Of a DNA stretch of 44,163 bases, positions 5,483-43,898 are shown piece after piece. The translations under genes were made by a program, and so were the position numbers. This DNA comes from a virus. Under the pieces are notes generated by a model, which saw only the letters and a program-made list of their open reading frames with translations, did not search any database and was not told where the DNA came from. The stretch lies in the UHGV virus genome UHGV-0207246; one strand, 5' to 3'. Positions within the stretch are counted from its first letter, which is position 1. The number at the start of each line of letters is the position of its first letter.

Positions 5483-6651
5483 ATATGGCTACAACTCCTT
5501 TTAAGGGCGCGAATACCGCGCAATTCTATGTGGCGGAAGTGACCCCGGGCGTAACACCGGATAACCCGGTATGGTCGCCGTTGCGCAATACGGGCGGTGT
5601 TCCGGCCATTACCCGCGACACGCTGACCTCCAATGAACTTGACGGCAGCCGTGAAACTACATCCATCCGCACCGGCAACAAGCAGGTTAGCGGAGAATAC
5701 GCTATTGAGCTTAGCTCGAAAAGCCAGGACGACTGGTTAGCCGGGGCTTTAGGCTCTACGTGGCAATCCGGCGTTTCTCTGTCCGGGCTGTCTATTACCG
5801 TCGCACCGGCGGGAAAGACATTCACCCGTGCAGAAGGTAGCTTTATTTCTGACGGCGTTGAAGTGGGGGACTTAATCGCGTTCACCGATTTAACTGGCGA
5901 TAACGCCAAACCGTTTATCGTAACCGAGGTAAGTGCGACAGTTGTCACCGGTGCTGGTACCCAACATACTCTGACCACTGAGACCGCCACTACTGCGGCT
6001 AAAACTGGCGATAAGCTGGAAACCGGTAGCCAGTGTAAGACGTTCTCTATTCTCACCTGGTACAAAGGCCAGTGTGGTGGGGCCGACGCGTACACGCTGA
6101 CCAAAGGCGTGGAAGTTTCTGGCTTCACTATTGAGCAGGCCGTTAACGCGATGGTAACTGGCAGCTTCCCGTTCATCGGTCGCAGTCAGGAGATTCTCGC
6201 CACGCAGCCGACAGGTTCTGATTTCTCCTCTGTCACGTTTGGTGACGAGCCGTTCTCTTCGGTTGACGTTTCTGTGTTCGATGGCTCAACACCGTTGCGC
6301 TGCGACAGCCTGGCCATCACCAACGACAACAGCGCGTCCGCTCAGTTCGAACTCGGCAACACTAACGTGGCGTTTGTGGAGCGTAGCCGCGCGGCTAACA
6401 CCTTCTCTATCTCTGGTAAGCTGTACGACATGGCTATGATTCAGAAGTTTATCAACGAACAGCAGGTAGAGATTAACTCTATTCTGGCGGGGGTAAACGG
6501 GGCTATGTCTTTCAGTTTAAAACGTGCGGAACTGACAGCGGTTACACCTGAGATTGGCGGACCTGAGTCAATCACTCAGTCTATTGAAGGCCAGGCTACT
6601 GGCAACCAGTACCAGTCGTCTATTGTTATTCAGCGTATCACCTACGCATAA
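5479..6651 (+). CDS. major tail (tube) protein
   Basis: 390 aa ORF after neck genes and before chaperone/tape-measure genes; followed by strong terminator. Confidence 0.6.
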   Translation: MNMATTPFKGANTAQFYVAEVTPGVTPDNPVWSPLRNTGGVPAITRDTLTSNELDGSRETTSIRTGNKQVSGEYAIELSSKSQDDWLAGALGSTWQSGVSLSGLSITVAPAGKTFTRAEGSFISDGVEVGDLIAFTDLTGDNAKPFIVTEVSATVVTGAGTQHTLTTETATTAAKTGDKLETGSQCKTFSILTWYKGQCGGADAYTLTKGVEVSGFTIEQAVNAMVTGSFPFIGRSQEILATQPTGSDFSSVTFGDEPFSSVDVSVFDGSTPLRCDSLAITNDNSASAQFELGNTNVAFVERSRAANTFSISGKLYDMAMIQKFINEQQVEINSILAGVNGAMSFSLKRAELTAVTPEIGGPESITQSIEGQATGNQYQSSIVIQRITYA

Positions 6652-6655
6652 AACT

Positions 6656-6679
6656 AAGGCCCCGAAAGGGGCCTTTTCT
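6656..6679. terminator. bidirectional rho-independent terminator
   Basis: AAGGCCCC-GAAA-GGGGCCTT flanked by A-run and T-run between convergent genes. Confidence 0.75.
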
Positions 6680-6909
6680 TACTCATCAATATTGCTTCGG
6701 TATTCCCGTAACTTCTCCAGACTTTCAATTGCTTCCGCTAAGTCTGTTCCGGTATCCTTGTGACCGCGCAGGCCCATACACAACAGCTTCTTCAATGCGT
6801 GCTGTAGCGCCGGGTCACGGATATCGAAAGCACGGAGAACATCATAAACGTCTACTGTCATAGTGCTGCCGTGAATGTTTGTCATTGTTCGGTTGTATTT
6901 TGAAGTCAT
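6679..6909 (-). CDS. DUF3310-like small phage protein
   Basis: Pattern VYDVLRAF...LQHALKKLLCMGLRGHKDTG.DLAEAIESLEKL resembles the DUF3310 family consensus (from memory). Confidence 0.45.
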   Translation of the reverse strand: MTSKYNRTMTNIHGSTMTVDVYDVLRAFDIRDPALQHALKKLLCMGLRGHKDTGTDLAEAIESLEKLREYRSNIDE

Positions 6910-8101: not shown

Positions 8102-8428
8102 CTATTTACTTTCTGCGCCTATCGCCCACCCTGTCATTACCATTTGCAGACGGGTGGCTGTCAGTAGGCTATAGAAAGCATCTCCGTTTTTCTCTACCGA
8201 ACGTATCACTGTGTAGGTTACGGCCTGCGGGGGTAGGCCCGATTTACCAACCTCTACAGCGGCCTCACACTCGCGAACGGTAGAGTCCTTAAATGCCTTT
8301 ACAATAGTAGGGTCGGCTTTATCGAGAACACCAGAAGTCATAAGAACAGATTCACTAAATACCTGTTCGCACGGAGACCCAAAAGCGGCAAAAGACATAA
8401 ACCCCAGAGCTAATACTAATTTACGCAT
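8102..8428 (-). CDS. secreted/periplasmic protein (signal peptide), function unknown
   Basis: N-terminal MRKLVLALGFMSFAAFGS signal-peptide-like; first gene downstream of an early-type promoter. Confidence 0.5.
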   Translation of the reverse strand: MRKLVLALGFMSFAAFGSPCEQVFSESVLMTSGVLDKADPTIVKAFKDSTVRECEAAVEVGKSGLPPQAVTYTVIRSVEKNGDAFYSLLTATRLQMVMTGWAIGAESK

Positions 8429-8456
8429 AATTATTTCCTCAGTAGGTTACAGGTGA

Positions 8457-8485
8457 ATAGTACCCTATTATATTGGGGTGTGCAA
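8457..8485 (-). promoter_or_regulatory. class I early-type promoter (TTGCAC-17-TACTAT) for the minus-strand island
   Basis: Reverse complement TTGCACACCCCAATATAATAGGGTACTATTCACC matches the 30384-30412 promoter at about 32 of 35 positions; contains AATAG-N4-CTATT inverted repeat. Confidence 0.6.
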
Positions 8486-8592
8486 GTAGTGTGTTAGAAT
8501 AAGTTTGCGCCTAGTGTCGCACACGAAAAGCGGGTGGTTCCCGTCTGGCGCAACACCATCAACCAGTAACCTCTTAACCAAAGGATTAAAGA

Positions 8593-18471: not shown

Positions 18472-18476
18472 CAATG

Positions 18477-18500
18477 AAAAGGCCCCAAACGGGGCCTTTT
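18477..18500. terminator. bidirectional rho-independent terminator
   Basis: AAAAGGCCCC-AAAC-GGGGCCTTTT between convergent modules. Confidence 0.75.
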
Positions 18501-18502
18501 CT

Positions 18503-18640
18503 CTACTCTTCTGATAACTTCTCAAGTACAAACGCCAGTTGCGCATTAGCGGCGTCTCTTTGCTGGCGTAGTCGTAGAACCTCCTCCTCGAGTTCCTTGA
18601 TACGTTTTTGCAATGCTGGAATCGGGGCTATGATGTTCAT
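18503..18640 (-). CDS. hypothetical small coiled-coil protein (45 aa)
   Basis: ATGA overlap with helicase stop; hand-translated MNIIAPIPALQKRIKELEEEVLRLRQQRDAANAQLAFVLEKLSEE. Confidence 0.3.
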   Translation of the reverse strand: MNIIAPIPALQKRIKELEEEVLRLRQQRDAANAQLAFVLEKLSEE

Positions 18641-20279: not shown

Positions 20280-20564
20280 CTAACTATAATAGTTCGCTAT
20301 TAGGTCGTCAACCTGTTTGAACGACCCGACGACAAAAACATTCGCACCACGTTTACGCATCCGCTCATGCTCTCGTAACTGGTGTGGGTCAGGCTTCGTG
20401 CTTTCGTCTTTCTTCACCTCGACGAACCAGACGATGCCGCCCGGGAGAATTACCAGCAGGTCGGGAGCGCCGGAGCGCCCCTCATAAGACAGTTTACGGA
20501 CGAGGCCCCCGATGGCCTCGAATCGCTCTTTTGCGTATTTCTGTATTTTTCCTTCCGGGGTCAT
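20280..20564 (-). CDS. VRR-NUC domain nuclease (PD-(D/E)XK)
   Basis: Motif GAPDLLVILPGGIVWFVEVKK; start set at ATG (track begins at upstream TTG). Confidence 0.55.
   Translation of the reverse strand: MTPEGKIQKYAKERFEAIGGLVRKLSYEGRSGAPDLLVILPGGIVWFVEVKKDESTKPDPHQLREHERMRKRGANVFVVGSFKQVDDLIANYYS
20283..20311 (-). promoter_or_regulatory. class II promoter (TTGACG-17-TATAGT)
   Basis: Reverse complement TTGACGACCTAATAGCGAACTATTATAGT; near-identical spacer to promoters at 24601 and 26753; lies within 3' end of upstream CDS. Confidence 0.6.
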
Positions 20565-23878: not shown

Positions 23879-23901
23879 AAAAAGGCCCAATGAAGGGCCT
23901 T
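23879..23901 (-). terminator. rho-independent terminator
   Basis: AAGGCCC-TTCATT-GGGCCTT then T5 on minus strand. Confidence 0.55.
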
Positions 23902-23920
23902 AGTTAAATTGATTCAGATA

Positions 23921-24547: not shown

Positions 24548-24600
24548 CTTGATTTCTCGCTTTTAAGTTTACTCCGGGAACCGCCCGGCCAGTGATTAGA

Positions 24601-24629
24601 ACTATAATAGCTTACTATTCAGGTGTCAA
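24601..24629 (-). promoter_or_regulatory. class II promoter (TTGACA-17-TATAGT)
   Basis: Reverse complement TTGACACCTGAATAGTAAGCTATTATAGT. Confidence 0.65.
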
Positions 24630-24633
24630 CACT

Positions 24634-25908
24634 TTATTCTAAATCTTCTTCACTAACCTGATCCCACTCAGGACGTTTGTCGTCTGCCGTTGCGACACAT
24701 GGTGCGCCTGGCTTACGGGTAATAAAGTCTTTCAGTTCTTCTTCCGGTATAACTTTAACCGCTTCGGTGGGCGTCATGAGAACTACCTTTTGCAGCATAG
24801 TACCGTACTTCTCGAATACTGCATCGGTATCTTTCCACGCACGATTACCCGGGCGACCCTCAACCAGTTTGTACCCTGGAACTTTCTTACCGGAATGCAA
24901 CGCGGCAGCCATAGCTTTCTCAACCTTGTCGATGTGCTGGCGCAGCATCGGCAACTTCTCATACTCAGCTACGAGTTGCTCAGGAGTGAGTTCCAGCGCA
25001 AAGTCGTCCTCCAGTTCTTCCGCCAGTACGGAATTAACCGTCTTTGTACGCGCGGCGCATTGTTCCGAGAACCTACACCACTGACAACCATCGACCGACG
25101 GCCTGAAGTCCGACGCTTTCAGGTTCTTCTTACCGCGGAAATAAGCATCAAGCGCTAACAGCGCGCGTTTCTGTGCGAACTTAGCGAACAGTTCCAGACC
25201 TTCAACCGAGATGTCCCACTCCGACGCACCGCCCGCGTATGGCTGGAAGATGACCAGACGAACCACGGTGATGTTATAACGTCTCTTGAGTCGGCGATAA
25301 ACACCAAGAGCGTAAAGCATAAGCTGTTTGTTTTCTTTCGCTTCGACGCGATGCCGTCCTGTTTTCAGGTCTGTGATATTAAGTATAAATTCGTCTGTAT
25401 TTGCTTTTTCTAGCACGGCAACAAGGTCAGCGGTTCCGAACGTCTCTAAATCATCCTCCTCGCCTTCTTCACCATCAGCGGGTACTTTGTAGCCAGGATG
25501 TAGCACCTGAGTAAGATTTACGCGCATCTCGAGCTTGGCATAAGTCGCTACGTCGATAATCGCTTTGCAGTAGTCGGTGTACTTGCGCACCTGCTCAATC
25601 ATGTCCGCCGTAATCAGTACCGCGCCTTTCATAGGACTGATTAGCGCCTTAATCTGGCCTTTACCCTCATCCAGCACGTAAGCACCTACTTCGCGCTCTA
25701 ACGGCAACGCAGTGCCTTTGATGTACTGGTTTAAGTGCATCTCAGCTATGGTGTGCATAGCCGTTCCTAATACGGCGGCTTTACCTGACGTGTTAGGAAT
25801 ATCTTTTTCACAGGCCAGTGATGCACTGCACGCCAGCCACTTTTTAGCACCAGACGGCGACAGTAAGGCGTGCACATCGTTATTGCCGCCGCGTTCCTTT
25901 AAAATCAT
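24634..25908 (-). CDS. PD-(D/E)XK nuclease, Cas4/RecB-like (DUF2800-like) with C-terminal Cys cluster
   Basis: Motifs ITDLKTG, QLMLYA, C-terminal CQWCRFSEQC; start at ATG with RBS GGGAGAG, ATGA-coupled to upstream gene. Confidence 0.6.
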   Translation of the reverse strand: MILKERGGNNDVHALLSPSGAKKWLACSASLACEKDIPNTSGKAAVLGTAMHTIAEMHLNQYIKGTALPLEREVGAYVLDEGKGQIKALISPMKGAVLITADMIEQVRKYTDYCKAIIDVATYAKLEMRVNLTQVLHPGYKVPADGEEGEEDDLETFGTADLVAVLEKANTDEFILNITDLKTGRHRVEAKENKQLMLYALGVYRRLKRRYNITVVRLVIFQPYAGGASEWDISVEGLELFAKFAQKRALLALDAYFRGKKNLKASDFRPSVDGCQWCRFSEQCAARTKTVNSVLAEELEDDFALELTPEQLVAEYEKLPMLRQHIDKVEKAMAAALHSGKKVPGYKLVEGRPGNRAWKDTDAVFEKYGTMLQKVVLMTPTEAVKVIPEEELKDFITRKPGAPCVATADDKRPEWDQVSEEDLE

Positions 25909-26721: not shown

Positions 26722-26752
26722 TTGTTTCTCTCCTCTCGTTTGGTATGGGCTA

Positions 26753-26781
26753 ACTATAATAGCGAACTATTCACATGTCAA
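26753..26781 (-). promoter_or_regulatory. class II promoter (TTGACA-17-TATAGT)
   Basis: Perfect -35, 17 bp spacer TGTGAATAGTTCGCTAT, -10 TATAGT, about 30 nt upstream of ATG. Confidence 0.7.
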
Positions 26782-26845
26782 TGGGTTTTTCTAAAATAAT
26801 TAATATGGTACTATTCGCATATCAACTAACTAAGGAGTAATTGAT

Positions 26846-27079: not shown

Positions 27080-29299
27080 CTATTCCAAATCCTCTTCTGT
27101 CACTACCAGCATTTCATTCGGTTCGTATATTGTCTTCGGTCTTAGTCTATCCCCTATTCTTTCAGGTATACGATACGTTCTCGGTACTACTTCGCCATTA
27201 GCATCACAGCCTAGCATTAGTTCACCATCTTTCAGCATTTTATCAAGATGGGTGTTAGTCACAGAAAAGTCACCGGAACGGGCAACTATCTGCTGCTGAG
27301 TAAAACCGCGACCTGTGTCATCTGACTGTTGCAGGTCTTCCAGTGCCGAAAGTATTGACTCCTTCCTTACTTCATCCTTCCCACGTTTTACGGCATTCTT
27401 TACGTTTTCTTTACCTTCCTTTGCCAGCCCTTCTTCGCGCTCTTTCTCCTCGTCGGTTTTGAACGGCTCGAAGCCCCACGGCATCAGCACAAGTGCCTTA
27501 TGCGGCTCAGGAAGGTCCAGGTTTACGATTGTGCCGTATTCTTCTGTGCTACCCAGGAACTCAACAGCACGGTATTCTTTCGGCGGCGGGGCTTCACGGA
27601 ACTGTACAGACTCAAGCACCATGCCGACGGTTTTCTGTTGAGGCCCGTGCTTAAATTTCGAGTGGTATACGTTTATCTGGCGGTCGGTAGCGCGTTCGAT
27701 TGTCAGCTCGACGTCGACACCTGCATACAGTGCCCCGCTGCCACGGGCTTTCTTTCCACCCTTCGGCGTATGGTGGACAACGCCCACCGCGGCTTTAGTC
27801 GCATCACGTACTTCTTTCAGGATGGCGATAACTTTACCCATACCGATTGCCGTGGACGAACTGTTCTCGTCGAACTTATCAATCGTCAGGGCTAGCGTCT
27901 GGTTAAGGGTATCAAACGCGACCACCCCAATTGGCTCATCGCCAGCAGTTTCACGCATTAACTTAATCAGGCTTTTCAGTTTTCCGACTTCGCCCATATC
28001 GATAACATGTACATAATCTTTACCTTCCTCGCCATATTTAGCCGCTAGCGCATCAATACGTGTACGTGTAGCTGCACCGCCTTCGCCATCGATATAGAAA
28101 TGGTGGCAACGCTGGGTATCCGCCCCTGCAAACCGGTATCCGGCGGCGCTCAGGTACATCATCCCCAGCGTATAGAATGATTTGTACGTACCAGATTCAC
28201 CGACAATATCCCATATGCAATCTGACGGCATGTACCCCTCAACGACGAAATCAGCCTTTACCGGTTCCGGTAGCTCGTCCTCTTCTGAGCCCTCGTCTTC
28301 CAGGTCGTCGAGGCTGCAAGTTACTGGATCCTCGTTCTCTGTGCGGTGTAGTTCTTCAATCTCTTCTTCCGGTAAATCAGGTAGAGCCGCACGAATGCTG
28401 TTAATGCTGATAGGTTGCTTATCTACGTTAAGCTCGTCGGGTAGGCCACACATACGCAGGGCCAAATGCTGCCTACGGTTAAGCTCGGTGCAAGCGCCGT
28501 TGTTTGTATGCTGGCAGACAAAGCGAACTTCTTTACCGTCGAGCATGATGCTGGTGGAGCCCTTGCCTGTATGCAGATGTTCGTTAGGGCATGGCACTTC
28601 GTACCCGCGACCAGAAGATAAGACGTCAAGGCCAAGCTCGGCTTCGCAGAAATGCGCTATATCTGCGTTAAGCCCATGCTCATCGGCGGCAAGTGTCTTA
28701 GCTTCGCGTTTACGCAACCCCATCTCTTCGGCTTTCTTGATGTACCGCTCGGCACGGATAACACGCCCTTCTGTAACCGTTATCTTCGACTCTCTATGTG
28801 GCAGGTAGATGAGGCGGTTGCCATCTTCCGTGCAGTGGTCGCGCAATGCTTCGTCTATTTCTAACTCTGCACAAATAGCCCGTTGAACCATCCACGCGTC
28901 GTTAGAGTTAAACGGCGTGCGAGCCGGTACGAGAACGCGGAAGGCGTAATCACCGTTTTTACACGCATGTTGATGCGATGCCGTTGTGTGCAGAATATTG
29001 AAGAACGGTGCGATCTTGAATTTGCGGGTAAGGTCGCGGTACTGAGTACGGTTTAGATGGTCGAAGTCGAACTTAACCACACTGTCTTCCAGAATAGCGT
29101 TTTTACGGCGGCCACCAACAGGCGCAATAGCTTTCTGTTTAATCTTGGCAGCGTCGTACTCTTCTTTAGTCCATGACGGGTCCACGGACAAACGCTTTGA
29201 TGTATCACAGACATACTCTACGAACTGCTCCAGCGGCATTTCACGCGCTACAGGGTTTTTATCGAATGTGTTACGCAGCGTTGCAAAAACAATATTCAT
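27080..29299 (-). CDS. DNA primase/helicase (primase-polymerase-like N-terminus, RecA/DnaB-like ATPase C-terminus)
   Basis: N-terminal DFDHL; Walker A-like GESGTYKS and Walker B-like IGVVAFDTL. Confidence 0.65.
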   Translation of the reverse strand: MNIVFATLRNTFDKNPVAREMPLEQFVEYVCDTSKRLSVDPSWTKEEYDAAKIKQKAIAPVGGRRKNAILEDSVVKFDFDHLNRTQYRDLTRKFKIAPFFNILHTTASHQHACKNGDYAFRVLVPARTPFNSNDAWMVQRAICAELEIDEALRDHCTEDGNRLIYLPHRESKITVTEGRVIRAERYIKKAEEMGLRKREAKTLAADEHGLNADIAHFCEAELGLDVLSSGRGYEVPCPNEHLHTGKGSTSIMLDGKEVRFVCQHTNNGACTELNRRQHLALRMCGLPDELNVDKQPISINSIRAALPDLPEEEIEELHRTENEDPVTCSLDDLEDEGSEEDELPEPVKADFVVEGYMPSDCIWDIVGESGTYKSFYTLGMMYLSAAGYRFAGADTQRCHHFYIDGEGGAATRTRIDALAAKYGEEGKDYVHVIDMGEVGKLKSLIKLMRETAGDEPIGVVAFDTLNQTLALTIDKFDENSSSTAIGMGKVIAILKEVRDATKAAVGVVHHTPKGGKKARGSGALYAGVDVELTIERATDRQINVYHSKFKHGPQQKTVGMVLESVQFREAPPPKEYRAVEFLGSTEEYGTIVNLDLPEPHKALVLMPWGFEPFKTDEEKEREEGLAKEGKENVKNAVKRGKDEVRKESILSALEDLQQSDDTGRGFTQQQIVARSGDFSVTNTHLDKMLKDGELMLGCDANGEVVPRTYRIPERIGDRLRPKTIYEPNEMLVVTEEDLE

Positions 29300-29493: not shown

Positions 29494-29784
29494 TCACCGT
29501 TTAGCCAACTCTTCCAGCAAATTTTTATACTCTTCAAAATATTCCTCGACCAAATCGTCGCCGAAATAGAAGTCGATATACTCGATATTATCTCCTACGT
29601 TAAGCGATGCCGACATGGTGCTTAGTTGGCGTAAGCTAATTAGCTTCATTTCTGTTTCTACGCAGAAAGGCCGGTAGGTATCAAGGTGACAAGAGATATT
29701 GAAACATAAGGCGAACTCTCCCGCCACGGTGTGGACCATATACACTTCGTTTTCTGCTTTATTGTGGAAAATTACACCTTTCAT
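29494..29784 (-). CDS. hypothetical protein
   Basis: ORF track; ATGA-coupled downstream of HTH gene. Confidence 0.4.
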   Translation of the reverse strand: MKGVIFHNKAENEVYMVHTVAGEFALCFNISCHLDTYRPFCVETEMKLISLRQLSTMSASLNVGDNIEYIDFYFGDDLVEEYFEEYKNLLEELAKR

Positions 29785-29963
29785 TTCACGTTCTCCTTAA
29801 TCCACGCTTCAACTTTATTTCGATCAAATGTACCGGGTAAACGGCGACCCATAACCTTAATACAACAATCCGGGAATTTACCACTGCGCAACCAGTTATT
29901 AATTGTCTGACGTGTTACCCCGATACGTTCGGCGACTTCATTCTGTGTCATGTAATGCTGCAT
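29781..29963 (-). CDS. small HTH DNA-binding protein (AlpA/excisionase-like fold)
   Basis: MTQNEVAERIGVTRQTINNWLRSGKFP; first gene of leftward operon. Confidence 0.55.
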   Translation of the reverse strand: MQHYMTQNEVAERIGVTRQTINNWLRSGKFPDCCIKVMGRRLPGTFDRNKVEAWIKENVK

Positions 29964-29995
29964 TTTTTATATCTCCTGTTTGTTTAGTGAAACCG

Positions 29996-30024
29996 AGTAT
30001 AGGATAGCGGGAATGTAAAAGCAA
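29996..30024 (-). promoter_or_regulatory. leftward promoter (TTGCTT-17-TATACT)
   Basis: Minus strand TTGCTTTTACATTCCCGCTATCCTATACT, about 35 nt upstream of ATG with RBS AGGAGA. Confidence 0.55.
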
Positions 30025-30061
30025 CCAATCCCTGCAATATTTAATCTTTACAAAAAAGTTA

Positions 30062-30091
30062 TTGAAAGTTCTTGACTCATGTTTGTATAAT
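30062..30091 (+). promoter_or_regulatory. rightward promoter (TTGAAA-18-TATAAT) of a non-coding unit
   Basis: Perfect -10 TATAAT, -35 TTGAAA with 18 bp spacer; no ORF before the terminator at 30291. Confidence 0.55.
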
Positions 30092-30118
30092 GGTTTTGGG
30101 ACTTGTATGTATTACGGA

Positions 30119-30150
30119 GTTGACGAACCCTCCCCGAGGGATTCGTCAAC
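30119..30150. repeat. 32-bp near-perfect palindrome GTTGACGAACCCTCCCCGAGGGATTCGTCAAC
   Basis: Outer arms GTTGACGAA/TTCGTCAAC and inner arms CCCTC/GAGGG. Confidence 0.8.
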
Positions 30151-30290
30151 CCCTCCCAGACAGCTGAGATGCTTGCCTTGGGGTTTAAGGATAAGTGTAT
30201 CTAAATCTCATTTAAAGAAGTAACCAGCTGAAATATCTACTGTTTCTTCCTATGCCGTAGATTCGCAACCGTAAAAATGTAACGATTATT

Positions 30291-30318
30291 GGGCAGGCTT
30301 AAGGCCTGCCCTTTAGTT
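30291..30318 (+). terminator. rho-independent terminator
   Basis: GGGCAGGC-TTAAG-GCCTGCCC followed by TTTAGTT. Confidence 0.6.
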
Positions 30319-30383
30319 ACCAAGTAATAAGAATAAAGGCACAACCTTCCCCGAAGAATCACAACGGCAACGTAACTATTCTC

Positions 30384-30412
30384 TTGCGCACCCCAACATA
30401 ATAGGATACTAT
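30384..30412 (+). promoter_or_regulatory. class I early-type promoter (TTGCGC-17-TACTAT)
   Basis: TTGCGCACCCCAACATAATAGGATACTAT; conserved leader to RBS GAGGAG. Confidence 0.6.
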
Positions 30413-30445
30413 TCACTTATCGAAACGAGACAGAGGAGTGGGGTT

Positions 30446-30643
30446 ATGTTTAAGAAGGGTCAGTTGGCTAGGGATATAGGTACAGGGCTTTTAGTTCAGG
30501 TTGTCAGCGAGCCTATTAATATTGAATCTGAATTTAAAGGATTCTTGCCTGTTAAAACTGTTACAGGTTCATGGATAGCGTATCGCAAGCCATCCGATTT
30601 AGAACTCATCGGCAACAATTTTAAATTCAAAGGGGCGAAGTGA
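30446..30643 (+). CDS. hypothetical early protein
   Basis: ORF track; RBS GAGGAG. Confidence 0.45.
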   Translation: MFKKGQLARDIGTGLLVQVVSEPINIESEFKGFLPVKTVTGSWIAYRKPSDLELIGNNFKFKGAK

Positions 30644-34452: not shown

Positions 34453-34717
34453 GCTATTCTGGTTCGGCGGTATGCTGGTAATAGGAGGCACATCGCTGTT
34501 TAATGTATATCACCCCAGCGTGGACGACGGGTTATTCGGTCGGGTGCTCTATATCCTGACTGCCATCGTCTGTGCTGCCGGATGTATACACCTGTTACAG
34601 AGCAGCATGTCACCAACGCTGCCTGAGACGTTAATCACATTAGTTGCGCTGCGTCAGATTCGTCAGGCGTGGCTGTCATACGGAGGACATAAGCGTGTCT
34701 CGAAACATTTCAGATAA
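34445..34717 (+). CDS. second lysis membrane protein (holin/antiholin candidate)
   Basis: Two hydrophobic segments; overlaps holin stop and endolysin start. Confidence 0.45.
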   Translation: MNELFWFGGMLVIGGTSLFNVYHPSVDDGLFGRVLYILTAIVCAAGCIHLLQSSMSPTLPETLITLVALRQIRQAWLSYGGHKRVSKHFR

Positions 34718-35180
34718 TGGATTGCATTTTACCGCCGCGTTCGAGGGATTCCGCGGTACCGCGTATCGCGCTACCCCAAATGAGAAGTACCTGACTATAG
34801 GCTACGGTCACTACGGGCCAGACGTAACACCAGGTAAGACCATCACCCCGGGGCAAGGCCTCCTGTTACTGAACCGTGATATGGCTAAGGCCGTAGCTGC
34901 GGTTGATGCAGCGGCGCACCATTCACTGACACAGGCGCAGTTCGACGCAGTGTGTGACCTGGTGTATAACGCTGGCGCTGGCGTGATTGCGTCTACTACG
35001 GGCACAGGCAAGGCACTGCGTTCTGGTGATACTGCAACACTGCGGGCTAAGCTGGCACTGTTCATCAACCAGAACGGCAAACCACTACTTGGCCTGCGTC
35101 GCCGTACAGCCGGGCGGCTGGCATTGTTCAACGGTAAACCGTGGCAGGAGGCGGAGGCTATTGGGAGGGCTGTTAAATGA
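34695..35180 (+). CDS. endolysin, GH24-type lysozyme
   Basis: Motif TAAFEGFRGTAYRATPNEKYLTIGYGHYG; GTG start after RBS GGAGGA. Confidence 0.7.
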   Translation: MSRNISDNGLHFTAAFEGFRGTAYRATPNEKYLTIGYGHYGPDVTPGKTITPGQGLLLLNRDMAKAVAAVDAAAHHSLTQAQFDAVCDLVYNAGAGVIASTTGTGKALRSGDTATLRAKLALFINQNGKPLLGLRRRTAGRLALFNGKPWQEAEAIGRAVK

Positions 35181-39021: not shown

Positions 39022-40491
39022 ATGTTAACTATGAACGGTCAGAATCAGGGTGTTAAGACTAAACACCGGGAATGGCTGCATCACTTCGATAAATGGCAGA
39101 AGGTACGCCATGCGCTGGAGGGCGACCTTATTCGCTATCTGCGTAACGTTGGGAAGAACGAACCTGACCCGACCTATGCGGCCCAACGGCAGGAAGAGTA
39201 CGAGAACGGCGCTATCTGCTACAACTTCACCAAACGTACCCTGGCCGGGATGGTTGGTAGCGTCATGCGCAAAGACCCAGAGCAGATTATACCTCCTGAA
39301 ATGGAGTACCTGCTGCGTAATGCCGACGGTTCCGGTGTCGGGCTGTGGCAGCACGCTCAGGATTCTTTGATGGAGATTGACTCGGTGGGCCGTGGGGGGC
39401 TGCTGGTGGACGCGCCGGAGACAGCAGCAGCAACGGCGGCAGAACAGAACGCGGGGCTATTAAACCCGGTCATTGCATTCTACACTGCAGAGAACATCAT
39501 CAACTGGCGGCTGACCCGCGTCGGCTCAGTGAACCGTGTGACGATGGTCGTATTGCGCGAGGTGTGGGAATACTCAGAACCAGGCGCAGAGTTTGAAACA
39601 AAGTTCGGGGAGCAATACCGTGTTCTCGATTTGATTGAAGGCCGTTACCGTCAGCGCATTTACCGCTTCGATGCTGAAGGCGGTGCTCAGGATGAAGTAA
39701 TCGAAATCTTCCCGGAACTTGGCGAACAGTTACGCGGTAAAATACCGTTCACTTTTATTGGGGCAAGCAACAATGACGCAACCATTGACGACGCACCTTT
39801 GCTGCCGTTGGCTGAGCTTAATATCGGGCATTTCCGCAACAGTGCGGACAATGAGGAATCCAGTTTCGTCGTAGGTCAGCCTACTCTGTTCATCGCCCCG
39901 GGCGAGAACATGAGCATGGAACAGTGGAAAGAAGCCAACCCTCACGGCGTACGCATGGGGTCGCGCTCGGGTCATAACATCGGTTACGGCGGCAATGCGT
40001 TTCTGGTTCAGGCGGAGGAGAACAACCTCGCTAAACAGAATATGCTGGATAAAGAGAACCAGGCCATTCAGATTGGTGCGCAGCTTATCACCCCGACGCA
40101 GCAAATCACCGCTGAATCTGCCCGTCTGCAACGCGGGGCGGATACGTCCGTTATGGCAACAATCGCACGTAACGTAAGTATGGCGTATACCGATGCGTTG
40201 CGCTGGGTAGCGGCGATGCTGGGACTGCGGGAAGACACAGAGATTGAGTTCAAGCTGAATATGGAGTTCTTCTTGCAACCTATGACTGCTCAGGACCGCG
40301 CACAGTGGATGGCGGATATTAACGCCGGCCTGTTACCCGCTACTGCTTACTACGCGGCATTGCGTAAGGCTGGTGTAACTGACTGGACTGACGAGGACAT
40401 TCAGAACGCTATCGAGGATGCACCACTGCCGTTAGGCGCTGTCACTCAGGCGGCGGGGGAGATTCCGCAGTCGGCGCAGCAACAGGAGTAA
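39022..40491 (+). CDS. portal protein
   Basis: 489 aa ORF directly after terL and before head morphogenesis gene. Confidence 0.65.
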   Translation: MLTMNGQNQGVKTKHREWLHHFDKWQKVRHALEGDLIRYLRNVGKNEPDPTYAAQRQEEYENGAICYNFTKRTLAGMVGSVMRKDPEQIIPPEMEYLLRNADGSGVGLWQHAQDSLMEIDSVGRGGLLVDAPETAAATAAEQNAGLLNPVIAFYTAENIINWRLTRVGSVNRVTMVVLREVWEYSEPGAEFETKFGEQYRVLDLIEGRYRQRIYRFDAEGGAQDEVIEIFPELGEQLRGKIPFTFIGASNNDATIDDAPLLPLAELNIGHFRNSADNEESSFVVGQPTLFIAPGENMSMEQWKEANPHGVRMGSRSGHNIGYGGNAFLVQAEENNLAKQNMLDKENQAIQIGAQLITPTQQITAESARLQRGADTSVMATIARNVSMAYTDALRWVAAMLGLREDTEIEFKLNMEFFLQPMTAQDRAQWMADINAGLLPATAYYAALRKAGVTDWTDEDIQNAIEDAPLPLGAVTQAAGEIPQSAQQQE

Positions 40492-40493
40492 AG

Positions 40494-40518
40494 AAAAAGG
40501 CCCCTTTCGGGGCCTTAG
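40494..40518. terminator. bidirectional rho-independent terminator
   Basis: AAAAAGGCCCC-TTTC-GGGGCCTT then AGTTTTATT. Confidence 0.7.
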
Positions 40519-40520
40519 TT

Positions 40521-40733
40521 TTATTCATGTGTCGCTGCTCTGAAATTAAGTTCTTCACGAGGGATAAAACCTCTATCAGTTTTCACATAACAAGTTGTGT
40601 AACTATACATTACCTCTCTGCCTGTGACATCTCCGTAGTTCTCACACCCGTGTTTATCTAAGCTACGTACACCAGCAGCAATTACCAGTGAAACTGCCAG
40701 TGTCGTCAATACCGCGATAATTAATTCTTTCAT
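40521..40733 (-). CDS. small exported/membrane-anchored Cys-containing protein (70 aa)
   Basis: N-terminal hydrophobic MKELIIAVLTTLAVSLVIAAG; driven by class I early-type promoter. Confidence 0.45.
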   Translation of the reverse strand: MKELIIAVLTTLAVSLVIAAGVRSLDKHGCENYGDVTGREVMYSYTTCYVKTDRGFIPREELNFRAATHE

Positions 40734-40766
40734 CTTTAAATCCCTTATCTCTCGTTTCGATAGCTG

Positions 40767-40795
40767 AATAGTACCCTATTATATTGGTGTCTGCA
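40767..40795 (-). promoter_or_regulatory. class I early-type promoter (TTGCAG-17-TACTAT)
   Basis: Reverse complement TTGCAGACACCAATATAATAGGGTACTAT; same region may carry a rightward TCGATA-17-TATATT promoter. Confidence 0.55.
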
Positions 40796-40840
40796 AATAT
40801 TATTTTTATGCGTTACACTGGCGATACTACAGGAGGGCAT

Positions 40841-42778: not shown

Positions 42779-43239
42779 TGATGGGCTTTTTCAAAGTAAC
42801 TGACGTACCGTCGCGTCGCGTAGTCCAGTACGCCCGTGTGTCTGGCTCCGGTGAGAACGTGGTATTTATTGAAGATGAAAGTGTACTCGGTACACCTGTA
42901 GACGATATGCCGTTTGCAGATAAAACTGGTATTGCGCTACCGACCGCAGGTATGCTTTACGAGATTCCGTATCTGGCAGACGCTGGAGACGTGTATTTCT
43001 CTGCGCAACCGCAGGATACCGAACTGACAGACGGCAGCGCGACTCTCACTGTCGAAGTTAAGGCTGGTAAAGCGCCATATGTGCTGACCTGGTACAAAGA
43101 CGGTAAGGAAGTGGTAAACGCACCTGAAGAGGCTTTGTCTCTGACGGTTAATGCAGTCGGTGAATACTTCGTCAAGGTTACCGATGCCGATGGCGTAGAG
43201 GCCTTCAGTAAAGCGGCGAAGGTCACTAAGCCAGAATGA
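42778..43239 (+). CDS. Ig-like domain protein (paralogous domain to 2533..2874)
   Basis: ATLTVEVKAGKAPYVLTWYKDGKEV...VGEYFVKVTDADG parallels LTVAVTGGLEPYSYQWYKNNNAI...SGTYKVVVHDVYG. Confidence 0.5.
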   Translation: MMGFFKVTDVPSRRVVQYARVSGSGENVVFIEDESVLGTPVDDMPFADKTGIALPTAGMLYEIPYLADAGDVYFSAQPQDTELTDGSATLTVEVKAGKAPYVLTWYKDGKEVVNAPEEALSLTVNAVGEYFVKVTDADGVEAFSKAAKVTKPE

Positions 43240-43240
43240 T

Positions 43241-43272
43241 AAAAGGCCCCGTATGGGGCCCTAGTTTTATTT
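43241..43272. terminator. bidirectional rho-independent terminator
   Basis: AAAAGGCCCC-GTAT-GGGGCC then AGTTTTATTT. Confidence 0.65.
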
Positions 43273-43788
43273 AAATCGCGCAGGCATTAACACCATAAAG
43301 GCCGTGTTTGAAAATAGTATTTTACATCCTCTGGTTTGGTCCTGGAAATCGAAACGAGCAATTTCATTTTTGTATGCCTTAGAAATCTTGTACGCGTCTG
43401 CCAAATAACGCAGGGTGAACCCTATACTATCGACAACACCCGGTGTGATGTGCGCCACGCGTCTCCAGTCAGGAAAGTTTCCTTCTACAACATCTACCGG
43501 AAGTGTACATATAAGCGCACGATTATCGTCATAGAAAGATACACTGCCGTTGTCGTGGTTTACCTCCGCGTAGTTAAATTTAGAAGGCTCTCTCCCTTTG
43601 ATGTCTATGAGAGTCCCTTTCTCAACGTTGGTCTTCACATTGTCGCAGAACAATCTATGACCGTCCGTAGACACTATCAATCCTTCAGGGTCTATGTAAA
43701 AAGCGTTCAAATAGTAGCGAACATCATTTTTAGCCCTGCATATTTTCGCCCCTACATACGCAGGGAAAGTAATTACTGTAGTAACCAT
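43267..43788 (-). CDS. hypothetical protein (173 aa) expressed from class I early-type promoter
   Basis: ORF track; RBS AGGAGATGAAAA. Confidence 0.5.
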   Translation of the reverse strand: MVTTVITFPAYVGAKICRAKNDVRYYLNAFYIDPEGLIVSTDGHRLFCDNVKTNVEKGTLIDIKGREPSKFNYAEVNHDNGSVSFYDDNRALICTLPVDVVEGNFPDWRRVAHITPGVVDSIGFTLRYLADAYKISKAYKNEIARFDFQDQTRGCKILFSNTAFMVLMPARFK

Positions 43789-43815
43789 TTTTCATCTCCT
43801 GTTTAAATTAACTGA

Positions 43816-43844
43816 ATAGTACCCTGTTATGTTGGTGTGCGCAA
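43816..43844 (-). promoter_or_regulatory. class I early-type promoter (TTGCGC-17-TACTAT)
   Basis: Reverse complement TTGCGCACACCAACATAACAGGGTACTAT. Confidence 0.55.
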
Positions 43845-43898
43845 ACTATTTATTTACGTATTCCAGTTATTCCACCGAATTGTAAATGTTAGAATAAA

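Follow-up and report, generated by a model that had tools for sequence, protein, structure and literature searches.

The DNA examined here, UHGV virus genome UHGV-0207246 (44,163 nucleotides (nt), read as one strand from 5' to 3' and called the window below), is an essentially complete genome of a Kagunavirus (subfamily Guernseyvirinae), a phage of E. coli. This study concerns the gap between two divergent operons, where a promoter, a 32-nt palindrome and a terminator-like hairpin follow one another within positions 30062 to 30318 and may form a small non-coding transcription unit. The gap runs from a small helix-turn-helix (HTH) gene to the first rightward open reading frame (ORF) and measures 482 bp (29964-30445), in agreement with the ~480 bp given by an initial annotation of the sequence. 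A query of 601 bases around the unit matched 393 GenBank phage records, all of small Escherichia/Salmonella siphoviruses; the top matches were Kagunavirus with ~95% identity. Two annotated relatives have the same gene order, with a leftward helicase-primase gene, two small ORFs and the small HTH gene, followed by a gap of ~480 bp and many small rightward ORFs. In the window, the helicase-primase and polymerase module adjoins the unit. The plus-strand cluster downstream of the unit contains a lysozyme gene (34644-35180) and, by homology to Salmonella phage 5sent1, terminase, portal and structural genes. The features of the region are as follows.

29781-29963, minus strand: first leftward gene, encoding a 60-amino-acid DNA-binding protein of the HTH_17/excisionase family (Pfam HTH_17, E = 1.6e-8; PHROG 66).
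29996-30024, minus strand: leftward promoter P_L, read from the sequence as TTGCTT (30024-30019), a 17-nt spacer and TATACT (30001-29996).
30062-30091, plus strand: rightward promoter P_R, TTGAAA-18-TATAAT, matching the consensus at 11 of 12 positions.
30098-30318, plus strand: predicted non-coding transcript of ~221 nt, from promoter and terminator prediction.
30119-30150, plus strand: 32-nt palindrome with 14 bp, one bulged A and a 3-nt CCC loop, read as an RNA hairpin.
30171-30178, plus strand: hypervariable patch in the RNA of W-type phages (those with the 5' module of the window), which reads CCTTGGGG, CCCAACGG, CCTTGTGG or TTTTAGGG in the W-type alignment.
30228-30350, no strand assigned: type A 3' cassette, matched in 335 phage records; no other part is widely conserved in Jerseyvirus and Kagunavirus.
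30291-30318, plus strand: intrinsic-terminator-like hairpin GGGCAGGCT-TAA-GGCCTGCCC followed by TTTAGTT, with a stem-loop at 30291-30311 (9 bp, 7 of them G-C).
30360-30376, no strand assigned: anchor motif CACAACGGCAACGTAAC, directly upstream of the next promoter.
30384-30416, plus strand: D1-type promoter of the rightward genes, TTGCGC-17-TACTAT, a repeated promoter-like motif.
30446-30643, plus strand: first rightward ORF, 65 amino acids, PHROG 12538 (unknown function).

A whole-genome scan found only four sites in the 44-kb genome with 11 of 12 matches to the sigma-70 consensus. P_R is one of them, and it lies where the initial annotation had placed it. Transcription from P_R would start near 30098. 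P_L and P_R are arranged back to back, and P_L drives the HTH gene. The AGTATA and -35 bases of P_L are invariant in an eight-lineage alignment, and the promoter scan gave TTGATT-17-TATACT as its Jerseyvirus counterpart. The HTH protein scores slightly under the cut-off of the NCBIfam 'excise' model, and its gene is one of four early genes identified by RNA-seq in the related phage K1B4 (PMC12645636).

Beyond the terminator, the 'class I promoter' of the initial annotation is the D1-type promoter. It is conserved, stands ~30 nt upstream of the first rightward ORF and has the palindrome AATAG-GATA-CTATT (30400-30413) over its -10 element. Further copies of the D1-type motif (8453-8486, 40750-40796 and 43809-43865) each lie ~25-30 nt upstream of a gene start and have a 5' untranslated sequence in common; these promoters elsewhere in the genome occur without any upstream unit of the kind studied here. 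The D1-type promoter at 30384-30416 thus gives the rightward operon a promoter that does not depend on P_R. The anchor motif is present in every lineage retrieved, which is by design, since it served as the retrieval pattern. In all probability it is a DNA element that goes with the promoter. Upstream of the D1-type promoter at 43809-43865 there is a similar ACGTAA, and the ACGGCA within the anchor resembles an upstream element of the next promoter.

The palindrome reads GTTGACGAA CCCTC CCC GAGGG A TTCGTCAAC, and it proved to be as nearly perfect as the initial annotation had described it. Folded with its flanks, the hairpin reaches -24.0 kcal/mol (z = -5.5), and 0 of 200 shuffled sequences folded as well. 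It is the most stable local fold in the genome, ranking first among 11,030 segments of 44 nt on the plus strand (mean -7.7, standard deviation 3.8). The hairpin extends to 30116-30153, with a helix of ~16 bp, and the 5' GGGA (30098-30101) pairs with UCCC (30154-30157). The palindrome itself occupies +22 to +53 of the predicted transcribed region. The intrinsic terminator of the initial annotation was recovered at 30291-30318 as a terminator-like hairpin, and its U-tract is short and interrupted. The terminator pattern alone is not above chance in the region (three found, 2.3 expected from shuffles); the terminator segment is among the five most stable 44-nt segments in the genome. The predicted 221-nt RNA as a whole has a minimum free energy of -77.9 kcal/mol (z = -5.2).

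For the comparison across Guernseyvirinae, 44 distinct intergenic regions were retrieved from IMG/VR (by the anchor motif) and from GenBank, and 42 were full-length, including that of the window. All 42 have P_L, a rightward sigma-70 promoter at the same relative position, an early hairpin, a terminator-like hairpin and the anchor with the next promoter. The early hairpin lies within the first ~100 nt of the predicted transcript and folds at -15 to -24 kcal/mol per 44 nt; the predicted transcripts of the relatives span 203-289 nt. In all lineages other than that of the window, the rightward promoter is TTGACA/TTGACT-16/17-TAAGNT or TAAAAT. The sequence of the unit is a mosaic. The 5' modules are of five unrelated kinds, W (window), J, K, S and L, and the 3' cassettes of three, likewise unrelated (A, B and C); they combine in seven ways. 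Cassette A has GGGCAGGC..GCCTGCCC-TTTAGTT. Cassette B has GGTGCC-TTCG-GGCACC, preceded by (CTCA)n repeats, with no adjacent U-run, and cassette C has a long stem ending in GTACTCT-TTTAAG.

The J and K types have an irregular hairpin of ~90 nt in common, with ~34 bp and internal loops in Jerseyvirus and K1ind1-type relatives. Its basal helices are either invariant or changed on both sides (CG in eight sequences and UA in eight at one pair; AU in eight, GU in six and GC in two at another; GC in twelve, AU in two and UA in two at a third). The K-type apical stems (CCGCC/GGCGG, CCGCUU/AAGCGG and GUUUAACCC/GGGUUAAAC) evolve fast and are still paired, and the J-type apical pair is UA in four, GU in two and GC in two. 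Five Jerseyvirus sequences have T-A in place of C-G as the eighth base pair of the terminator stem, and the loop also varies. Covariation across relatives, named as a check in the initial annotation, was thus found: compensatory and G-U changes keep the J and K hairpins paired, as does the C-G to U-A change in the terminator stem. The hairpins of the non-W lineages are non-homologous, and their pairing is maintained by compensatory changes.

Within the W type, the exact 32-nt palindrome is present in nine of nine other sources checked. GenBank record OQ696342.1, which is named near-identically to vB_Eco_K1B4 and may be the same phage, carries the exact palindrome. The only change near it is A30118G in phage DUEC01, by which the stem is lengthened, and the W-type lineage is only ~5% divergent. 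Since the palindrome is invariant within the W type, the hairpin of the window offers no covariation evidence of its own. The initial annotation would have counted a lack of conservation in relatives against its proposal. On this point the outcome is split: the palindrome is exactly conserved within the W type, and in the other lineages it is replaced by unrelated hairpins.

At the 3' end, the type A cassette contains ATATCT (30233-30238), TGCCGTAG (30253-30260), an AU-rich stretch that is conserved in type A and predicted to be single-stranded (~30262-30285), the terminator and ~35 nt beyond it. The segment 30228-30386 is 87.5% identical to Salmonella phage 5sent1, compared with 68-83% for most of the genome. 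The whole 291-nt unit is found in only 21 of the 335 matching phage records. The remaining records, mostly of Salmonella Jerseyviruses, match only at 30228-30330 or 30253-30330.

We also considered the coding status of the region. The initial annotation had allowed no ORF longer than 11 codons in the transcript. This was incorrect, as a 38-codon ATG ORF (30107-30223) lies inside the predicted transcript and is part of a 53-codon TTG frame (30062-30223). The ATG at 30107 reads ATA in all eight W-type relatives aligned, one of which has a 2-nt insertion adjacent to it, and the 38-codon frame is therefore not a gene. Insertions or deletions of 1 nt and 4 nt occur in the type A block (phages ER21 and SS5), single-base ones occur in the terminator loop, and the 4-nt repeat of cassette B varies in copy number. 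Together with the loss of the start codon, these 1-, 2- and 4-nt changes exclude coding. Some relatives have small minus-strand ORFs annotated here. Even near-identical phages disagree in the length and frame of these ORFs, one of which extends across terminator, anchor and next promoter. Rfam 15 gave no relevant match for the window at E <= 1 or for eight loci of the W, S, K and J module types at E <= 5, and ARAGORN found no tRNA or tmRNA. In the literature searched we found no description of a non-coding RNA in Guernseyvirinae. The RNA-seq time course of vB_Eco_K1B4 (BioProject PRJNA939978 / PRJCA028359) is reported at gene level (PMC12645636), and one GenBank relative record annotates a promoter and a terminator, as predictions only.

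These observations bear on the idea that the region has no dedicated function, being a chance combination of promoter and hairpin in a recombination-prone spacer, or that it is a small coding gene. The region is highly mosaic, its consensus-pattern counts are not above those of shuffles, and annotators have called small ORFs here in several relatives. However, the architecture is kept in all full-length sequences despite replacement of the sequence, the hairpin and terminator are extreme outliers in stability, and compensatory changes maintain pairing. The ORFs annotated in near-identical phages agree neither in length nor in frame, and the start codon of the one ATG ORF on the transcribed strand is lost in relatives. 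We consider this explanation, in either form, very improbable.

Alternatively, the palindrome could be an operator, bound by the HTH protein or by some other dimeric DNA-binding protein and forming a roadblock at +22 to +53 of P_R. Its near-perfect inverted repeat with 9-bp outer arms and the adjacent HTH gene would suit such a role. The half-site GTTGACGAA, however, is matched with one mismatch at 12 places in the genome (6.2 +/- 3.1 expected), and its exact copies are the two arms alone. A single HTH allele (MQHYMTQNEVAE) accompanies both the W and the S module, the hairpins of which are unrelated, while the first gene varies among phages with the S module and likewise among those with the K module. 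In J and K phages the equivalent is the ~90-nt irregular hairpin, which is unlike an operator. The site does not lie over the promoter, and a better operator candidate, AATAG-N4-CTATT, is found at about eight promoters. With a half-site that is unique and a hairpin type that varies independently of the HTH allele, the palindrome is unlikely to be a DNA operator, and we rate this explanation as hardly probable at all. The suggestion of the initial annotation that the palindrome is a protein-binding DNA site is accordingly disfavoured: the half-site is not repeated beyond chance, and the position within the transcribed region fits poorly.

The elements of the unit exist, are statistically exceptional and non-coding, and stand in an architecture that is conserved across the subfamily with compensatory changes in the hairpins. 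Our preferred reading, to which we give an even chance, is that the region is a self-contained early non-coding transcription unit in which the palindrome acts as an RNA hairpin and not as a DNA site. The promoter-to-terminator non-coding unit proposed in the initial annotation is supported in this respect, while its alternative of a protein-binding DNA site is disfavoured.

The proposed sequence of events is the following. Soon after infection, host sigma-70 RNA polymerase would start near 30098 from P_R. In the nascent RNA, the 5' GGGA is predicted by folding to pair with UCCC and the 16-bp hairpin to form; a more weakly structured centre and the putatively single-stranded AU-rich 3' stretch (~30262-30285) would follow. 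Most polymerases would stop at the terminator at 30291-30318 (3' end at 30314-30318) and release an RNA of ~220 nt. The terminator may also shield the rightward operon, which has its own promoter at 30384, or attenuate transcription into it. We lean slightly towards a free RNA product that would also insulate the downstream promoter. Such an RNA may accumulate, with the 5' hairpin as a stabiliser or as a processing or protein-binding site, and it may act in trans through the conserved 3' segment or be mainly an attenuated leader.

The argument for the RNA level rests on the orientation of promoter and terminator, on helices that pass through G-U pairs, and on the J and K hairpin being long and irregular. 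We also tried the strand asymmetry of folding energy as proof of a plus-strand RNA, which was not decisive.

Several results weigh against this reading. First, the start, end and abundance of the transcript are all deduced from sequence. Folding energies do not single out the plus strand, which has the lower value in only 26 of 40 cases; for the W hairpin it is the minus strand that folds slightly more stably. In addition, the W hairpin is invariant, and zero changes in 32 nt are only marginally unusual at the background rate (estimate ~0.06). TTTAGTT makes a short U-tract, and in the type B cassette no U-run adjoins the hairpin. Type A conservation runs ~35 nt beyond the terminator, for which a terminated RNA does not account. 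The 3' cassettes have only short motifs in common (TATCT, TGCCGT), with no universal seed. Finally, no trans target was found: the phage genome has no complementarity of at least 13 nt, the longest words are of 11-12 nt, at chance level, and the E. coli genomes searched gave no match. The segment 30233-30248 can pair with the ribosome-binding site of the HTH gene (29969-29984) at 14 of 16 positions. We rejected it, as similar repeats are common, the duplex has a z of ~0, and the pairing is absent in J and K types.

The arrangement of genes and promoters also suits a cis-acting leader with regulated read-through in the style of lambda PR'-tR'. P_R would then be the real promoter of the rightward lysis and morphogenesis cluster, and the 220-nt RNA the default aborted product, until a phage factor, or an RNA element such as the hairpin, makes the polymerase terminator-resistant later in infection. 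The unit heads the long plus-strand cluster (lysozyme, terminase and structural genes), within which several strong internal terminators lie. Read-through is likely at the type B hairpin, where no U-run is adjacent. The downstream promoter lacks a -35 element in some Jerseyviruses, and a small HTH protein is encoded divergently beside the unit. Against this, no Q-, N- or AlpA-like antiterminator was recognised by Pfam or PHROGs in the HTH gene and 25 further flanking ORFs, and NCBIfam showed none among the three window ORFs run, although distant or novel antiterminators could escape such profile searches. Moreover, the rightward genes have their own conserved promoter, and the hairpin sequences are wholly different between lineages with the same neighbouring genes. 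We regard this explanation as possible, if rather doubtful. It is not mutually exclusive with the non-coding RNA unit that we prefer.

The conservation of type A across the terminator would also fit a DNA-level origin, another role raised by the initial annotation. An origin activated or primed by P_R transcription would resemble the T7 primary origin, T4 oriF or ColE1 RNA II; the P_R transcript would open or prime the AT-rich stretch, and the hairpins would be DNA or RNA structures in initiation. The cumulative GC-skew minimum lies at ~30000, the unit adjoins the helicase-primase and polymerase module, an AT-rich stretch (30170-30290, 33-37% GC) follows a strong promoter, and the palindromes fold equally well on both strands. 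The skew switch, however, is not independent evidence, because gene orientation changes at exactly the same point. A search for iterons or repeated boxes gave none. The sequence is swapped between phages with the same helicase-primase allele, W- and S-type phages both carrying that of the window, and the G-U intermediates in the helices point to RNA pairing. An origin is in our view unlikely.

Returning to the RNA reading, the exchanged hairpin cassettes raise a more specific idea. The unit could produce an abundant early RNA throughout the subfamily, with the fast-evolving and freely exchanged hairpin cassette as the specificity determinant towards a host RNA-binding, processing or defence protein. 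Rather than regulating by base pairing, the RNA would then serve as a decoy or against host defence, for instance by mimicking a substrate of Cas6 or RNase III. Such a role would account for the conservation of structure and position despite replacement of the sequence, and for the failure to find a base-pairing target. We hold this idea to be quite improbable. None of the 5,426 complete E. coli genomes searched by blastn with 30040-30390 had a match that would indicate a host or prophage origin, and an E. coli CRISPR-repeat mimic with at least 11 nt of identity is ruled out by the same result.

Two resemblances among the hairpins may be recorded here. The L-type stem CCCCGC/GCGGGG (L020, L061 and L064) is presumably that of the E. 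coli/Salmonella type I-E CRISPR repeat, and the J-type apical GUUCCGC..GCGGAAC (e.g. L004, 934-954) presumably resembles a shortened version of it. Both likenesses may be a coincidence of G+C-rich stems.

Further observations concern the 3' cassettes. Of the 42 full-length sequences, 38 have TGCCGT(A/G) at 35-50 nt ahead of the terminator (30253-30260 in the window), and the other four have single-base variants of it. Its complement, ACGGCA, lies in the anchor (30364-30369 in the window) in 42 of 42, the anchor being the retrieval pattern. The two flank the swapped 3' cassettes like an inverted repeat of 6-7 bp. Long-range pairing between TGCCGT (30253) and ACGGCA (30364) was rejected, as L093 has TACCGT with ACGGCA unchanged and there is no covariation. 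The TGCCGT motif can also be read as a two-codon mini-ORF, ATG/GTG/TTG-CCG-TAG/TAA/TGA, in which start and stop vary in a codon-compatible manner; this mini-ORF has no Shine-Dalgarno sequence, and its start is lost in L030. The type B cassette (L002, L019, L030, L065, L073 and L085) has a (CTCA)n microsatellite of ~2 to 6 copies directly upstream of GGTGCC-TTCG-GGCACC. This stretch is C-rich and G-poor, as in a Rho-loading site, and no U-run follows the hairpin.

The Salmonella phage records NC_073201.1 (dunkel, 5-105) and NC_073202.1 (celemicas, 1-59) begin inside the type A block. A genome terminus or pac site there was considered and rejected, since the two records start at different bases and other records start elsewhere; the differing starts are therefore probably a deposit convention and not a physical end. 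In the ~1-kb 'gene-free' gap of the Jerseyvirus 5sent1 (L088), an unannotated 41-codon Gly/Trp-rich ORF lies within 39385-39575, with an ATG at 39397 and an AAGGAGG ribosome-binding site, followed by a good terminator (39550-39571) with TTTTTGT. The window also has a family of near-identical strong terminators, AAAAGGCCCC-NNNN-GGGGCCTT(T/A), at 6648-6684, 18476-18507, 23880-23910, 40495-40525 and 43234-43271, several of which are inside the plus-strand late cluster.

The AATAG-N4-CTATT palindrome accompanies about eight promoter-like sites in the window (8453-8486, 20282-20325, 24600-24643, 26752-26795, 26801-26842, 30384-30416, 40750-40796 and 43809-43865), which fall into two classes. In the first, TTGCRC-17-TACTAT with the palindrome over the -10 element, the sites precede the rightward cluster and three minus-strand 'moron'-like genes. 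In the second, TTGACA-17-TATAGT with the palindrome in the spacer (20311, 24629 and 26781, minus strand), they precede the leftward replication genes. The authors of the fBC-Eco01 study predicted this motif with PHIRE and called the sites promoters for a phage polymerase (PMC9825357). To us the pattern looks more like one operator for a phage regulator, possibly the HTH protein, than like promoters for a phage polymerase. The three minus-strand genes (40521-40733, 8102-8428 and 43267-43788) lie inside the plus-strand late region, each with its own D1-type promoter, and the 70-amino-acid product of 40521-40733 resembles a small membrane protein (MKELIIAVLTTLAVSLVIAAG...).

In some Kagunaviruses an additional segment of ~240 bp, containing a small ORF (MNKATASV...), separates the D1 promoter from the gene that usually comes first on the rightward side (L089, which is Bas70, at 746-964; L093; L108; compare 30417-30446 in the window). 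The annotation of this ORF as an 'internal head protein' in Bas70 seems unlikely. On the other side of the unit, the N-terminal 300 amino acids of the helicase-primase (27080-29299, minus strand) are a mosaic allele, at least 95% identical in only 43 phage records. The next relatives of this part are in Dhillonvirus (~39%); Jerseyviruses stand at ~29%. Dhillonvirus, which has the nearest helicase-primase relatives outside the subfamily, was considered for a comparable unit and has no comparable intergenic region there.

Guernseyvirinae (Kagunavirus and Jerseyvirus) are among the most often isolated phages of E. coli and Salmonella, and they are used in therapy, biocontrol and synthetic-genome work; genomes of the relative UTI-CM001 can be rebooted. 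To our knowledge, their early regulation has not been studied. A strongly promoted RNA with predicted structure appears to be a regular feature at the centre of their early control region, the architecture being common to all 42 sequences examined and the 3' block to 335 GenBank records. Widespread and strongly signalled as it is, the unit does not appear in present annotations, and small hypothetical proteins are sometimes called in its place. A real RNA here would offer a handle on the timing of early genes, and those who engineer these phages could either spare the site or make use of it; the unit would also show cleanly how RNA structural cassettes are exchanged as modules in nature. Should it prove to be just an attenuated leader, the regulation would be ordinary for a phage, and the annotation would still be corrected. 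The unit is best read as an undescribed RNA locus of a known general kind, either a phage early non-coding RNA or an attenuated leader.

Finally, we compared the unit with known systems. Like the Hfq-dependent trans-acting small RNAs of enterobacteria, it has its own promoter and is predicted to give a structured body and an AU-rich single-stranded stretch before a Rho-independent terminator. Those RNAs have a U-tail of about six or more U, whereas the tail here would be UUUAGUU, short and interrupted, and type B has no adjacent U-run at all; moreover, no seed is common to the three 3' cassettes, and no target was found. With the T7 primary origin, T4 oriF/oriG and ColE1 RNA II it has in common a strong promoter, an AT-rich segment, adjacent replication genes and a switch in the sign of the GC skew. 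Unlike these transcription-dependent origins, it has no iterons, its skew is confounded by gene orientation, and its helices tolerate G-U pairs.

The early leader of T7 carries the RNase III site R0.3. There, as predicted here, an early transcript of the host polymerase starts with a long non-coding leader and an irregular hairpin (~34 bp in Jerseyvirus and K1ind1-type phages). The R0.3 site is an irregular double-stranded hairpin of ~20 bp or more, whereas the helix of the window has only ~16 bp, and a terminator and a second promoter stand between leader and first gene. The put RNAs of HK022 are cis-acting antiterminator stem-loops just downstream of early promoters. The unit resembles them in its stable stem-loop, predicted in the first ~60 nt of an early sigma-70 transcript and upstream of a terminator; it differs in having one dominant hairpin, not conserved in sequence between lineages, in place of two defined stem-loops with conserved features.

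The lambda PR'-tR' unit makes the 194-nt '6S' leader RNA, and the corresponding unit of Stx phages gives rise to StxS, a small RNA that is a terminated PR' leader and has trans activity as well. In contrast to lambda PR'-tR', no Q-family gene was recognised among the flanking ORFs searched here, and the downstream genes have their own promoter; from both lambda PR'-tR' and StxS the unit differs in lacking sequence or Rfam similarity and in belonging to a strictly lytic phage with divergent early promoters. The overall design is nevertheless the same, with a strong sigma-70 promoter, a predicted non-coding transcript of ~200 nt to an intrinsic terminator, and a position at the head of a lysis and morphogenesis cluster. 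By this analogy, the unit would work most like the lambda PR'-tR' '6S' leader.

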